Assembly (NCBI GenBank): GCA_963816185.1
Contig: CAWFJJ010000029.1
Location: 1 to 64,000 of the forward strand
Reading direction: 5' to 3'
From: Thermoanaerobaculia bacterium
Lineage (GTDB): Bacteria > Acidobacteriota > Thermoanaerobaculia > UBA5066
DNA length: 64,000 nt
The notes beneath the pieces are model-generated. The model searched no databases. It saw only the letters and a list, made by a program, of their open reading frames with translations, and had not been told where the DNA came from. The position numbers were made by a program, and so were the translations under genes. Of the stretch, positions 46,670 through 54,618 are shown in pieces; position 1 is the first letter of the stretch; the number at the start of each line of letters is the position of its first letter.

Positions 46670-47380
46670 TCAGGACTCGAGGAAGGAGGATACCGCGCGG
46701 TGCCACTGCTCTTCGGACAGCAGGGCCGGGGGTGGCAGGACGAGCTCACCTCCGTCCGCCGCCGCAAGGCCGAGCTCTCCTTCGAGGAGATGCGCGAGCC
46801 GCGCCTCCTCGGCATGAAACCAGGCGCGCGCTTCCTCGCCTGTCGGAAAGCTCCGGTACGTATCCGAGGCCGGCCGCACCGAGAAGAGCCAGCCCCTCAC
46901 GTAAGGCGAGGACAACAGGAGGGACGGGTGGCGCCGCACGGCGCCGTTTACGGCCATGACCGTGCCCGTCACGGGCGAAGAGACGATCGCCGTCCGCGCG
47001 CCGCACGCGACCGTCACGGCCGGGCGTCCGGCCGCCAGGACGCTGCCCGGAGGCGGAAGATGGACGGCGGTGACGCCGTGGAGGAGGTGCCCCGCGAGAC
47101 CGTCGAGACCCACCCGCAGGTGACCGTCGGACTCGTCCAGCCACGCGTGGGACGGCGTGTACCGCCGGCGCTCGGCGAGAACGAGGCCGTCGATCTCCAC
47201 GAGGCCGAGCCGGCGCGCCCTGAGCCGCCGGATCGTCCTCTCCGCCACGCGATAGAGGCCCCACCCCACGAGGATGGGCGCGAGGGCGACGGCGACGAAG
47301 GCGACGAGAAGCAGAAGCCGGATGAGGAGGCCGACCACGAAGATGGCGGCTCCCTGCAAGAAAGTCAGAAGGGCTTCCAT
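46670..47380 (-). CDS. Membrane-anchored GcvH-like protein lacking the lipoyl lysine
   Basis: N-terminal TM; YTPSHAW...RVGLD...SPVTGTVMAVN...PYVRGWL; VACGART at the ESVKA position. Confidence 0.8.
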   Translation of the reverse strand: MEALLTFLQGAAIFVVGLLIRLLLLVAFVAVALAPILVGWGLYRVAERTIRRLRARRLGLVEIDGLVLAERRRYTPSHAWLDESDGHLRVGLDGLAGHLLHGVTAVHLPPPGSVLAAGRPAVTVACGARTAIVSSPVTGTVMAVNGAVRRHPSLLLSSPYVRGWLFSVRPASDTYRSFPTGEEARAWFHAEEARLAHLLEGELGLAAADGGELVLPPPALLSEEQWHRAVSSFLES

Positions 47381-47385
47381 GATGC

Positions 47386-47733
47386 TCACCTCTCTTTCGG
47401 AGCGGCGTGGCACGTGACGCAATCGTCGAATCCGTGCGCGCTCTTGCCGTCGTGGCACTTGCCGCAAGCAGCGCCCTTCTCCATGTCCTTGTGCTTGAGT
47501 CGGGGCGCCTGGGCCTCGGAACGGCGGAGGATCGGAAACAGAGCCGGGTGGCAGGTCGTGCAGTCGGGCTTCCCGGCGTCGACGTGCGTCGCGTGGCGGA
47601 ACGTGACGACGCCCGGGCTGTCCGAGCCCTGCGGGAGAGCGCGGTCGTTCGGCAGGCGGGGGAGGCTGCCCGCGAGAACCGCCCCCGTCAGAGCGAGCGC
47701 GAGAAGGAGGGCGACGGGTTGGAGATGTCTCAT
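47386..47733 (-). CDS. Periplasmic triheme c7-type cytochrome
   Basis: Signal peptide; FRHATH, CTTCH, CGKCH, CVTCH. Confidence 0.88.
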   Translation of the reverse strand: MRHLQPVALLLALALTGAVLAGSLPRLPNDRALPQGSDSPGVVTFRHATHVDAGKPDCTTCHPALFPILRRSEAQAPRLKHKDMEKGAACGKCHDGKSAHGFDDCVTCHAAPKER

Positions 47734-52416: not shown

Positions 52417-52963
52417 GGGAGTCTCCGATCTCGTCGGCATTCTCGAGGAAGAGGGCCCGGCACGTTTCGCACAGCTCCGGCTGCTTGGCGTCCACGTCTT
52501 TCAGGCTCGAGGAGCGCGCCATCGCGCAGAGAGAATCGTGGCAGTGCAGGAGTCCGAACGTGTGCCCGAGCTCGTGGACGGCTTCGGTCCGAAGTCGCAC
52601 CGGAAGCCGGGCGGACTCGCCAGGCAGACCGGCACCGACGAGGCGGGCCGTCGACACGACGGCCGCATGGCCCCTGAGCTGAGCCTCGCCGAAGACGAAC
52701 GTCAGGACCGGGATGAAGAGGTCCGCATCCGTCAGGCCGAGGACGCGCGCGGCTCTCTGCGGCCGACGCGACGCGAGCCAGAGGAGAACGCGGTGCGAAG
52801 CGTGCTGGTTGCGCCGCGCGTCGAACGCATCGATCGGGCGACCCGCGGGGAGCTCGAGACGAGCCGGGAAGCGAAACACCCTCTCGACGTGCGCACGCAC
52901 GCTCTCGAGGAGTCCTCGGTCGGCGTCCCCCGTTCCGATCCACCACAGGGCGACGTCGTTCAC
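52379..52963 (-). CDS. Archaemetzincin (M54) zinc metalloprotease
   Basis: DLFIPVLTFVFGEA, HELGHTFGLLHC...CAMARS...LCETC Cys4 site; GTGA overlap with the kinase stop. Confidence 0.88.
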   Translation of the reverse strand: MNDVALWWIGTGDADRGLLESVRAHVERVFRFPARLELPAGRPIDAFDARRNQHASHRVLLWLASRRPQRAARVLGLTDADLFIPVLTFVFGEAQLRGHAAVVSTARLVGAGLPGESARLPVRLRTEAVHELGHTFGLLHCHDSLCAMARSSSLKDVDAKQPELCETCRALFLENADEIGDSHEQEEHADPASR

Positions 52964-54618
52964 GTTGCGGCGGCCGGGGCAGGGGCCGCGCCCCCCTCTC
53001 CGGCGAGCGGGAGCCGGATCGTCATCGTCGTTCCACGCCCGACGCGGCTGTCCACGCGCATTGAGCCGCCGTGTTTCTCGACGATCCCGTAGACGACCGA
53101 GAGCCCGAGCCCGGTGCCCTTCTCTTTCGTCGTGAAGAAGGGGTCGAAGATACGCGAGAGGTGCTCGGGCGCGATCCCGGCGCCCGTGTCCGCCACCGAG
53201 ATCTCGAGCGCGCTCTTTTCGGGGAGGAGACGGGACTCGAGCGTGAGCGTGCCGCCTGCTGGCGTCGCGTCGCACGCATTGAGGAGAACGTTCAGGAATG
53301 CCTGCCGGAGCTGGCCGAAGTCGGCGTTCACGGCGCCCGTGCCCTCGAGCGTCTTCACGACCGTGATGCCCTGAAGCTGCATCTTGTGCTGCGCGAGCGA
53401 AAGGGCCTCTTCCAGTGCGCGGACCGGGTCGATGATCTCGAGGTCGAGGGGCCTCGCGCGGGCGAAGTCGAGGAGGTTGCGCACGATGACGGTGCAGCGC
53501 TCGGTCTCGCGCTGAACGAGGAACAGGTTCTTCAGGCAGGCCGCGCGCGTGGCCTCGTCAGGAGACCCGGCCTCGAGCATGCGCGTCATGAGGCGCGCGA
53601 ACGTGAGGATGCCCGAGAGGGGGTTGTTGATCTCGTGCGCGATGGACGCCGACAGCTGACCGAGCGAGGCGAGCTTCTCGCTTCGCGCGAGGACCTCCTG
53701 CGCGCTCTTGAGCGCCGCCGTGCGGTCCTCGACCTGGTGTTCGAGGTCGTTCGTGAGGTTCTCGAGGTCGCGGCGCGTCTTCGCGAGCGATTCGTTCATC
53801 TCGTTGAACGAGTTTGCGAGGATCCCGAGCTCGTCCCACGAGCGAATTGCGAGAGTGGCCGATAGGTCGCCGTGGCGGACCCGCTGCGTGGCCTCCACGA
53901 GCGCGGCGACCGGGCGGAAGACGATGCGCCGCGCGACGCCGTTGACGAGCGCGGCGAGGGCGATCACCGCGGCCAGCGCGCCCGAGAGCAGGCGCAGCGA
54001 CTGCCTGTGCAGGCTCGCGTCGATCTCCTTGAGCGAGATGCCGATGTCCACGACTCCGAGGACGTGCTTCTCCGGCGGATGAGCGTGGCACGAGGCCGTC
54101 GCGCAGGCGGTTTCGTTGTAGATCGGAGTCACCATGCCGAGCACGCGGTGGCCGTTCGTCGTGAAAAGCCGGCTGCGTTCGGACGTCGTGGGCGCCACGA
54201 GCGGCTGGCCCGCCGCGTGACACGCGGTGCAGGCCTCCGCATCCTTGTCGACGGACGCGCCGATGTCGCGCGGGTTCGTCGAGAACATGACGCGGCCCTC
54301 TTTGTTGAGGACGCGGACTTTCTCGATCCCCTCGAGGCGCCCGATGCTCTCCATGATCCGATAGGCGCCGCGCCTCTGGTCTTCGAGCATGAGATCCCGC
54401 GTGCTGGTCGCGATCGTGCTCGAAAACAGTGCGGCGCCCCGGACGACCTCGCTGATGAGCTGCGCCCGCTGGGACCGGATCGACAGGAACGCGAACAGCG
54501 AGATGGTCGCCAGCGAGACCGCGGCGGCGGCGGCCGTCAGCTTGAACCCGAGATGCCGGTGGAACGGGATGCCGAGCAAGGTGTCCTCCGGCCTGAGCAT
54601 CCGGCAAACGGACGGCAC
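52960..54618 (-). CDS. HAMP histidine kinase with periplasmic heme-c-type motifs
   Basis: TM, periplasmic CTACH and CATASCH, TM, HAMP; AHEINNPL, N/G/F boxes (DPFFTTK, GTGLGL). Confidence 0.93.
   Translation of the reverse strand: MPSVCRMLRPEDTLLGIPFHRHLGFKLTAAAAAVSLATISLFAFLSIRSQRAQLISEVVRGAALFSSTIATSTRDLMLEDQRRGAYRIMESIGRLEGIEKVRVLNKEGRVMFSTNPRDIGASVDKDAEACTACHAAGQPLVAPTTSERSRLFTTNGHRVLGMVTPIYNETACATASCHAHPPEKHVLGVVDIGISLKEIDASLHRQSLRLLSGALAAVIALAALVNGVARRIVFRPVAALVEATQRVRHGDLSATLAIRSWDELGILANSFNEMNESLAKTRRDLENLTNDLEHQVEDRTAALKSAQEVLARSEKLASLGQLSASIAHEINNPLSGILTFARLMTRMLEAGSPDEATRAACLKNLFLVQRETERCTVIVRNLLDFARARPLDLEIIDPVRALEEALSLAQHKMQLQGITVVKTLEGTGAVNADFGQLRQAFLNVLLNACDATPAGGTLTLESRLLPEKSALEISVADTGAGIAPEHLSRIFDPFFTTKEKGTGLGLSVVYGIVEKHGGSMRVDSRVGRGTTMTIRLPLAGEGGAAPAPAAAT

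Follow-up and report, generated by a model that had tools for sequence, protein, structure and literature searches.

Gene organization and distribution of the cassette

The DNA analysed here is a stretch of 64,000 nucleotides from a Thermoanaerobaculia bacterium of the Acidobacteriota (positions 1 to 64,000 of contig CAWFJJ010000029.1 in assembly GCA_963816185.1; hereafter the window), which has a GC content of ~68–70% and carries at 46670..54618 a cassette of ten genes encoding a predicted membrane redox module, a group of accessory proteins and a set of regulators. The initial annotation, made from the sequence alone, had listed ten co-oriented genes at this place; all ten are real, and the correction concerns the strand, which is the minus strand, the genes being read from 54618 to 46670. 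With the start sites refined from relatives and reading frames, the gene set falls into two units. The first unit consists of the genes for a sensor histidine kinase (52960..54618, with an alternative ATG start at 54600), a cytoplasmic archaemetzincin (peptidase M54; 52379..52963) and an NtrC-type sigma-54 enhancer-binding response regulator, the activator (51037..52440, with an alternative start at 52416). The second unit comprises seven genes, with a -24/-12 promoter at its 5' side and a hairpin at its 3' end, and runs from a cytoplasmic protein of 79 amino acids (aa) with four cysteines (the 4-Cys protein; 50646..50885) through a single-helix membrane peptide of 28 aa, MIATVPLVLLFVLLLFLNDRAVARAGRV, recognized as an open reading frame (ORF) at 50563..50649, a 4x[4Fe-4S] protein that is exported by the twin-arginine translocation (Tat) pathway and tail-anchored (the FeS protein; 49646..50551), an NrfD-family membrane subunit (48409..49653), a first protein resembling the H protein of the glycine cleavage system (GcvH-like 1; 47744..48412) and a trihaem cytochrome c7 (47386..47733) to a second such protein (GcvH-like 2; 46670..47380). 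The kinase stop codon and the GTG start of the archaemetzincin gene overlap in GTGA, the 4-Cys stop and the start of the 28-aa peptide in ATGA, and the NrfD and GcvH-like 1 genes again in ATGA, while the FeS and NrfD genes overlap by 8 nt and the genes for GcvH-like 1, cytochrome c7 and GcvH-like 2 are spaced by 5–10 nt with GAGG-type ribosome-binding sites; in general, the gene junctions of the units are GTGA/ATGA overlaps or gaps of 5–11 nt with such sites.

A profile of GcvH-like 1 built from diverse homologues was searched by tblastn against a one-genome-per-species collection and gave 418 confirmed loci, the best 80 of which were used for all synteny counts, with the proteins of the window mapped onto them by phmmer. 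The nine larger genes occur all on one strand in 40 of these 80 loci. The FeS and NrfD genes together with at least one GcvH-like gene are found in 67 loci, 51 of which also have the kinase, M54 and activator genes, and many of the remaining loci are broken by contig ends. The co-occurrence in gene neighbourhoods that had been proposed as a check is therefore found, the nine larger genes recurring together in several phyla. The loci belong to Thermoanaerobaculia, Holophagales, Vicinamibacterales, Acidobacteriaceae and cultured Anaeromyxobacter species, and further to Rokubacteria/Methylomirabilis, Nitrospinota, Syntrophales and a metagenome-assembled genome (MAG) of the Chlorobiota; the loci of the Syntrophales have divergent regulators, and in them NrfD is followed by both GcvH-like genes. 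Within the Acidobacteriota the distribution of the cassette is patchy: the 4-Cys marker is present in 20 of 301 sampled genomes and 12 of 185 genera, occurs in all three genomes of the same genus, and was not found in the two genomes of the same order that were searched.

The genes flanking the cassette are mixed in ten diverse loci and include genes for a pyrophosphatase, a tryptophanase-like lyase, HD-GYP and TerC proteins and, in some loci, multihaem cytochromes. No hydrogenase, molybdoenzyme, large multihaem cytochrome or other catalytic subunit was a conserved neighbour in these ten loci, and molybdopterin enzymes are encoded in just two of them, at a distance and, in one, on the opposite strand. 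The earlier statement that a catalytic subunit is absent is thus borne out, and so is the description of the cassette as self-contained, since it has its own kinase, sigma-54 activator and promoter and is conserved across loci. What did not stand is the view of this absence as an oddity, because it is not unusual for the class of systems to which Nhc, Qrc and Cbc4 of Geobacter belong, the role of the cytochrome being taken here by the c7 protein.

Redox components and their predicted control

The core of the cassette is a familiar NrfD/FeS/cytochrome module, and it is the accessory proteins and the regulatory set that are new. The FeS protein (Fer4_11) has a Tat signal with the motif RRTLFK, four Cys groups (16 Cys) and a C-terminal transmembrane (TM) segment at residues 261–279; both the Tat motif and the tail anchor are present in all 61 full-length homologues, the number left after six truncated sequences were removed from 67. 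Against NCBIfam it matches HmcB best, with 342.6 bits (cut-off 420), and then HybA with 246.5 bits (cut-off 263), and its closest solved relative is FdnH (1kqf_B, E 8.7e-33). The NrfD subunit, which matches the NrfD family of Pfam and resembles HmcC, NhcC and HybB, scores 478.4 bits against HmcC (cut-off 550), its best match, and 278.6 bits against HybB (cut-off 450) of NCBIfam, has 10 hydrophobic segments, taken as 10 predicted helices, and shows 30% identity to E. coli HybB (E 6e-54); a comparison by sequence with solved structures gave no match for it at E <= 0.01. Its Asp129, invariant in 40 of 40 homologues, aligns with Asp109 of HybB, the position of an acidic or His residue in TM helix 2 that is needed for quinone protonation (PMC8076601), and the subunit is presumed to hold the quinone site. 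The third component, the only cytochrome in the cassette, is the cytochrome c7, whose precursor of 115 aa has a signal peptide and three CxxCH motifs (CTTCH, CGKCH and CVTCH) and scores 63.5 bits against TIGR04257 (cut-off 40) and 49.3 bits against PF14522 (cut-off 24.8).

Hmc proper consists of HmcABCDEF, including the cytochrome b HmcE and the HdrD-like HmcF. Neither the ten genes nor the related cassettes showed any HmcE or HmcF domains. The part of these systems that the cassette does share is seen in Nhc and HmcABC of Desulfovibrio, which likewise combine a periplasmic c-type cytochrome, a Tat-exported 4x[4Fe-4S] protein, a cofactor-less 10-helix NrfD-type subunit and a small membrane protein, have no substrate-converting subunit either, and in the case of NhcABCD are described as a 'TpIc3:quinone oxidoreductase' (PMC8076601). 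The differences are that the cytochrome here is a three-haem c7 instead of a 9- or 16-haem protein, and that two lysine-less proteins with the GcvH fold, the 4-Cys protein, the haem-motif kinase, the M54 peptidase and the sigma-54 activator are added. A comparable three-part build without catalytic subunit is that of Cbc4 from Geobacter sulfurreducens, an inner-membrane quinone-cytochrome c oxidoreductase of membrane-anchored tetrahaem CbcS, 4x[4Fe-4S] CbcT and membrane CbcU, as compared by its description (bioRxiv 10.1101/2025.04.14.648717); CbcS is a NapC/NirT-type tetrahaem cytochrome, whereas a c7 stands in its place here, and the available text of that preprint mentions no GcvH-like, 4-Cys or M54 genes. 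With HybA and HybB of E. coli hydrogenase-2 the cassette shares the FeS and membrane subunits and the HybB Asp109 position, whereas HybO and HybC are missing, the scores are below both cut-offs and HybB Ser129 is replaced by Ala. A full-text search, with subscription journals and supplements outside it, found no publication describing this gene combination, so that the earlier statement that no characterisation of it was known agrees with the literature as searched. Moreover, the word 'glycine' is absent from the review of NrfD-like proteins (PMC8076601), and in the genome paper on Anaeromyxobacter (PMC2330069) the sole mention of nrfD is in the legend of a figure that deals with oxidase clusters.

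The similarity to HybA/HybB and FdnH would also fit decay, with the cassette as the non-functional rest of an operon for a hydrogenase, formate dehydrogenase or molybdoenzyme whose catalytic subunit was lost, and the same genome does encode two [NiFe] hydrogenases and seven NrfD-family genes over the Pfam cut-off, six besides that of the cassette. However, the two [NiFe]-hydrogenase large-subunit genes flank an NrfD-family gene of their own on another contig (C8, ~298–307 kb). Furthermore, the same set is found in several phyla with reading frames, motifs, Tat signals and promoter intact and, in the ten diverse loci sampled, with no catalytic subunit as a conserved neighbour, and this conservation contradicts decay, which we regard as extremely improbable. 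Given the six other NrfD-family genes and the two hydrogenases, the module is one branch among several in this organism.

The kinase has the architecture TM1, periplasmic sensor, TM2, HAMP, HisKA and HATPase, the last three matched by Pfam (HAMP, HisKA and HATPase_c), with hydrophobic segments at residues 29–47 and 210–228, and the domain of ~160 residues between them carries the motifs CTACH (CxxCH) and CATASCH (Cx4CH). Full-length homologues taken from diverse loci keep the CxxCH motif in 19 of 19 cases, in the context DK.AE.CxxCH, in agreement with the haem-c motif reported for this kinase in the initial annotation, and the second motif occurs as C-x3/4-CH in most of them in the context P.YNE..C....CH. 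These motifs make it likely that the sensor domain attaches haem covalently. The neighbouring archaemetzincin (PF07998, 64 bits) has an intact active-site motif HELGHTFGLLH and an intact Cys4 motif (C-x4-C...CxxC), scores 143.6 bits against the NCBIfam model archmetzin, just below the cut-off of 145, and among 56 M54 homologues of related loci HExxHxxGxxH is present in 55 and Cys4 in 54. It thus shares both motifs with other archaemetzincins of peptidase family M54, and differs from them in its score just under the subfamily cut-off and in the place of its gene, which is set between those of a kinase and a sigma-54 activator. The literature search, which did not extend to subscription-only papers and supplements, yielded no publication that connects M54 with sigma-54. 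In the activator, REC, AAA+ and Fis-type HTH domains are all present (Response_reg 106.8 bits, Sigma54_activat 234.8 bits and HTH_8 50.1 bits) together with a GSFTGA loop, in line with the NtrC-type activator of the initial annotation, and rpoN is encoded in the genome on contig C28 (Sigma54_DBD 214.9 bits). In loci of the Anaeromyxobacter type (L065, L068, L073, L082, L086, L089 and others) a second pair of kinase and sigma-54 activator follows GcvH-like 2 on the same strand, and in L068 a multihaem cytochrome with Paired_CXXCH_1/c7 domains lies between GcvH-like 2 and this second pair.

The predicted sigma-54 promoter TGGCTCGAGCCTTGC at 50918..50904 on the minus strand ends 18 nt before the 4-Cys start codon and is the sole match with one mismatch to TGGCAC-N5-TTGC in the window. 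Matches with up to two mismatches are no commoner in the window than expected by chance (21 found, 35.9 expected), and the sequence match alone is therefore weak, the argument for the promoter being carried by its position and conservation. Of the 55 related loci with a 4-Cys match, two were set aside because the gene stands at a contig end; in 42 of the other 53, the 300 nt upstream of this gene contain a promoter motif with GG and GC fixed and up to two mismatches, and in 12 of 12 aligned close relatives the motif is invariant while its flanks vary; together with the presence of rpoN, this upholds the earlier prediction of a sigma-54 promoter before the gene of the Cys-rich protein. The same alignment of 12 close relatives revealed a conserved intergenic block, TGAGAAAGACAACGCCCCGTTGAG, at 51017..51041 on the minus strand (invariant columns 50–74). 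It holds the palindrome CAACG-N4-CGTTG, ~100 nt upstream of the promoter, and is a candidate for the binding site of the activator or, alternatively, may form a hairpin where the activator gene ends. In addition, a perfect inverted repeat, GCGCCTAT-N6-ATAGGCGC, is present at 50970–50991 (-) between the activator gene and the promoter, which, unlike the CAACG-N4-CGTTG block, is not conserved in the 12-sequence alignment. A direct-repeat unit, TTGAGAAAnnnAACGCC, was considered as an activator site and rejected, since exact matches were found in just 8 of 109 loci, these eight being four genomes each counted twice.

At the other end of the second unit, a GC-rich hairpin followed by UUCUUCUGU (46606..46640, minus strand) is a probable operon terminator by its predicted fold, the hairpin at 46640..46615 having a free energy of -27.3 kcal/mol over a 53-nt stretch and a z of -2.8. 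The terminator proposed earlier thus stands as to the GC-rich hairpin after GcvH-like 2, but its U-tract is weak and a simple terminator scan missed it. On the 3' side of the cassette lies a lipoprotein-like gene (45693–46574, -) for a protein of 337 aa (~290–337 aa) with an LFAGC lipobox and an Ala/Pro-rich linker, to which no Pfam or NCBIfam family could be assigned, and directly downstream, with a 4-nt overlap, a 628-aa ORF (43810–45696, -) that encodes a three-enzyme aromatic amino-acid fusion of prephenate dehydratase, DAHP synthase (family I) and chorismate mutase type II. Both genes were considered as members of the cassette and rejected, since their synteny is kept in close relatives only and they lie beyond the hairpin. 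Further downstream, at 40649–43797, are genes for a Fur-family regulator, a Ser/Thr kinase with TPR repeats and a UPF0047 protein, and directly upstream of the kinase gene is that of a Phage_holin_4_2-family protein with four TM helices (54662–55039, -).

GcvH-like proteins, the 4-Cys domain and the membrane peptide

GcvH-like 1 (GCV_H, 66.8 bits) is predicted to have a single TM helix with its N-terminus outside, a cytoplasmic H-protein fold and a family-specific C-terminal helical extension with the pattern QDGG..P..G.A...W, and GcvH-like 2 (GCV_H, 59.1 bits) has a hydrophobic N-terminal anchor of ~40 residues, an Arg-rich linker, the H-protein fold and the same C-terminal extension. The AlphaFold2 (AF2) model of GcvH-like 1, with a predicted local distance difference test score (pLDDT) of 89.6, shows a helix at residues 9–35, the H-protein barrel and a helical extension at 166–219. 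Foldseek with this model found H proteins only, the top match being 1onl_A (E 3e-13, TM-score 0.91). The TM helix is strongly conserved, with Glu16 and Tyr17 invariant, and is followed at residues 36–55 by a variable, Arg-rich linker of low model confidence, which is Arg/Lys-rich in the homologues as well.

In an alignment with the gcvH product of the same genome, the column of the lipoyl lysine holds Gly in GcvH-like 1 and Ala in GcvH-like 2, and Lys is present there in only one of 81 sequences of the GcvH-like 1 type and two of 60 of the GcvH-like 2 type. Among the 81 sequences, the position after this column is K in 38, Q in 19 and R in 15 (Gln here), and it is mostly Arg in GcvH-like 2. 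No conserved Cys column was found either, the best reaching 38 of 60 sequences for GcvH-like 2 and 8 of 81 for GcvH-like 1. The true H protein of the genome, which has ESVKA, is encoded on another contig, where its gene stands between gcvT and gcvP, and against TIGR00527, with its cut-off of 115.85 bits, the GcvH-like proteins score 61.9 and 48.4 bits. Compared with GcvH and the lipoate-binding LbpA proteins, they have the same fold and keep many of the structural motifs, among them HxW, SPVxGxVxxxN and DPYxxGW, but lack the lipoyl lysine, have an N-terminal anchor and a C-terminal extension of 50 residues in addition, and are not encoded beside gcvT/gcvP or sHdr genes. The initial annotation was thus right about the H fold of these proteins; they are not ordinary H proteins, being without the lipoyl lysine and, by their predicted topology, cytoplasmic and away from the periplasmic redox chain. 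In the databases they are labelled 'glycine cleavage system H protein', and for one homologue of GcvH-like 1 (P0055) there is a precomputed match to PF28260.1, possibly a new family that covers a part of this protein.

The topology is suggested by natural fusions. In P0271 and P0272, which represent distinct clusters found on a 138-kb and a 42-kb contig, a signal peptide and four CxxCH motifs precede the conserved TM helix and the GcvH-like domain, and this architecture places the N-terminus of the GcvH-like proteins in the periplasm and the H fold in the cytoplasm. A third fusion, P0073, with the order GcvH-like domain, Arg-rich linker plus TM helix and c7, is weaker evidence, being a single member from a 1651-nt contig. 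Supported by these fusions, by the Arg/Lys-rich linkers after the TM helix of the homologues and by 4-Cys::GcvH-like fusions that contain no TM helix, the H-fold domains of both GcvH-like proteins are predicted to face the cytoplasm. Apparent fusions of NrfD and GcvH-like proteins in L083 and L069 have out-of-frame middle parts and were treated as frameshift artefacts.

Structure prediction of the operon products, which had been suggested as a check, was applied to the pair of NrfD and GcvH-like 1. With paired alignments of 40 rows each, co-folding of these two gave an ipSAE of 0.43 (runs 0.42, 0.43 and 0.43), which counts as 'weak support'; by the calibration, a pass at or below 0.60 is wrong in most cases if the pairing was not likely beforehand. 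The best of three controls gave 0.00, the partner pLDDT did not fall below 72 and the runs had 81% or more of their contacts in common. Synteny, translational coupling, the fusions and this weak co-folding score together suggest that the GcvH-like proteins are subunits of the complex.

The 4-Cys protein was described earlier as Cys-rich; it has four cysteines, C8, C19, C39 and C47, that are invariant in 34 aligned sequences. It has no Pfam or NCBIfam match, and a protein atlas search with it returned only clusters of 'hypothetical protein'. A search of 1.84 billion representatives with its profile gave 313 matches at E <= 0.001 and 154 at E <= 1e-10, and in 22 of the 32 longer matches that were scanned a GCV_H domain lies C-terminal to one or two 4-Cys domains. 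By these fusions, which have neither TM helix nor signal peptide, the 4-Cys and GcvH-like domains appear to be functionally linked and both cytoplasmic, and the 4-Cys protein may belong to the complex too. Among other architectures, the single representative P0260 has a NUDIX domain apparently fused to the 4-Cys and GcvH-like domains, and the soluble proteins P0224 and P0228 have two extra repeats between the two domains, PCIWMKAG...R.C.....C..C and RKCRY....C.....C..C, which are of the Cx5CxxC type and make up a larger Cys-rich architecture. A processing site was considered for the sequence '(R/K)EV', with which the 4-Cys protein ends in a conserved manner, and dismissed, since the GGAGG ribosome-binding site of the following gene falls at the same place. 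This following gene is that of the 28-aa peptide, and here the claim of a real TM peptide held: a hydrophobic ORF of 18–45 aa that ends just upstream of the FeS gene, usually starting with MI(A/L) or MMFAF, is found in 42 of 61 loci.

The four invariant cysteines of the 4-Cys protein resemble cluster ligands, two of them being followed by Pro and one preceded by Pro, and this raises the question of a transmembrane conduit in which electrons from c7 and the FeS protein would cross the membrane, as in Hmc and DsrMKJOP, to an Fe-S cluster of the 4-Cys protein held by the GcvH-like domains. The layout is indeed like that of the periplasmic DsrJ/O/P triad with a cytoplasmic module, and DsrMKJOP shares with the cassette a trihaem periplasmic cytochrome, an FeS protein, an NrfD-type subunit and a cytoplasmic-side component (PMC8076601). 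However, the match to DsrO is weak (88.6 bits, cut-off 200), there is no match to DsrP at E <= 0.001, and neither the cytochrome b DsrM nor DsrK is encoded. Without a cytochrome b of the HmcE/DsrM type or a CCG/HdrD-type protein the cassette has no cofactor carrier in the membrane, NrfD-family subunits themselves contain no redox cofactor (PMC8076601), and the GcvH-like proteins offer neither conserved Cys nor lipoyl Lys. Thus, we hold such a conduit to be very unlikely.

Possible function of the cassette

We prefer, with modest confidence, the interpretation that the cassette encodes a cytochrome c:quinone module under the control of a haem sensor and sigma-54, equipped with a new cytoplasmic and membrane accessory module. 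At the level of sequence analysis, the gene set, its motifs and conservation, the absence of the lysine and the topology deduced from the fusions appear firm, and from these we infer a physiological role that is in all respects a proposal. The kinase would bind haem and read the periplasmic redox state or a haem ligand, and would phosphorylate the NtrC-type activator, which in turn would drive the sigma-54 promoter at 50918..50904, so that the second unit would be induced by redox state. In the periplasm, electrons might pass between the trihaem c7, the tail-anchored 4x[4Fe-4S] protein and the quinone site of the cofactor-less 10-helix NrfD subunit. The complex would then react with quinone as a cytochrome c:menaquinone or a menaquinol:cytochrome c oxidoreductase and would join the quinone pool to the periplasmic cytochrome pool with no substrate reaction of its own. 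The two GcvH-like proteins, the 4-Cys protein and the micro-peptide would form the accessory module of this complex, at its cytoplasmic face and in the membrane; the part at the cytoplasmic face would be attached to NrfD via the conserved TM helix of GcvH-like 1, and it would be structural or regulatory, not an electron carrier.

Several results weigh against this interpretation. A Ser near the quinone pocket, Ser129 in HybB, is conserved among NrfD-like subunits (PMC8076601), and the corresponding position is Ala148 here, the family having Ser in 33 and Ala in 7 of 40 sequences. The scores for both HmcB and HmcC are under the NCBIfam equivalog cut-offs, and co-folding supports the pair of NrfD and GcvH-like 1 weakly. 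The AF2 model of the 4-Cys protein is of moderate quality (pLDDT 69.5), with no match in the PDB at E <= 0.001 by Foldseek (best E 1.2), and the model leaves the role of the conserved M54 protease unaccounted for. A search for sequencing runs that contain the locus gave 13 of DNA and none of RNA. Moreover, in four of the 80 loci (L081, L084, L097 and L099) TM-GcvH-like paralogues have no FeS or NrfD gene within 9 kb, and because of these the TM-GcvH-like fold is not exclusive to the complex; for L081, L084 and L099 the same genome or MAG has FeS and NrfD at another locus (L083, L079 and L068, respectively). Finally, in P0261, known as a single representative, a receiver domain (REC) appears to be fused to the 4-Cys and GcvH-like domains, an architecture more suggestive of signalling than of a structural subunit.

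The neighbours of the lone GcvH-like paralogues include kinases, a methyl-accepting chemotaxis protein (MCP) and CBS proteins. In Syntrophus (L097) a pair of GcvH-like genes stands beside genes for DUF3783, DUF6125 and an FAD-dependent protein, and in L099 GCV_H forms the C-terminal portion of an ORF of 411 aa located after a cold-shock-domain gene.

The receiver fusion and the neighbourhood of kinases, an MCP and CBS proteins bear on another explanation, in which the GcvH-like and 4-Cys proteins are not electron-transfer subunits but serve in the cytoplasm as an adaptor or output module, through which the state of the membrane module would be reported or controlled. It would act with the archaemetzincin and the activator, for example by regulated proteolysis of the tethers or by feedback on the enhancer-binding protein, and the four cysteines might sense redox state or metal. 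This would agree with an intact M54 peptidase that is co-conserved with the kinase and activator, with HExxHxxGxxH in 55 of 56 homologues, and accompanies the regulators also in loci with inverted regulator genes, such as those of the Syntrophales; it would also agree with the commonness of soluble 4-Cys::GcvH-like fusions (22 of 32 long representatives) and with the variable, Arg-rich, low-confidence linker between the TM helix and the domain of GcvH-like 1. On the other hand, the GcvH-like genes lie within the structural operon, translationally coupled to those of NrfD and c7 and apart from the regulator genes, the TM helix of GcvH-like 1, strongly conserved and with invariant E16 and Y17, is as expected of a fixed intramembrane contact, the fusions to periplasmic cytochromes tie the GcvH-like domain physically to redox proteins, and the REC fusion is known from one representative. 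We therefore regard an adaptor of this kind as possible, if rather doubtful. A broader form of the idea takes the lysine-less GcvH fold and the 4-Cys domain as an unrecognised signalling or adaptor module that is wired through a conserved TM helix to the periplasm-facing cytochrome/FeS/quinone complex, so that the cassette as a whole would be a transmembrane redox-signalling device, and more than a respiratory branch, working with the archaemetzincin and the sigma-54 activator, e.g. by proteolytic release or by phosphorylation control as in P0261; this we consider unlikely. The cytochrome c:quinone module with its accessory proteins accordingly stays our preferred interpretation.

NrfD/FeS modules are the standard wiring by which anaerobes connect periplasmic redox proteins to the quinone pool, and the cassette is a widespread and seemingly undescribed form of such a module, which brings together three unstudied protein families, namely the membrane-tethered lysine-less H fold, the 4-Cys domain and the micro-peptide, with a dedicated haem-motif sensor and a conserved archaemetzincin. 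The label 'glycine cleavage system H protein' would mislead the metabolic reconstruction of MAGs from soil and sediment. Cultivable Anaeromyxobacter species carry the cassette, which makes it directly testable. If the cytoplasmic module is structural, it would amount to an accessory architecture new to NrfD complexes, and if it is regulatory, it would represent a new coupling of a respiratory complex to gene control; should the cassette be a redox-signalling device, it would give bacterial archaemetzincins their first physiological context.

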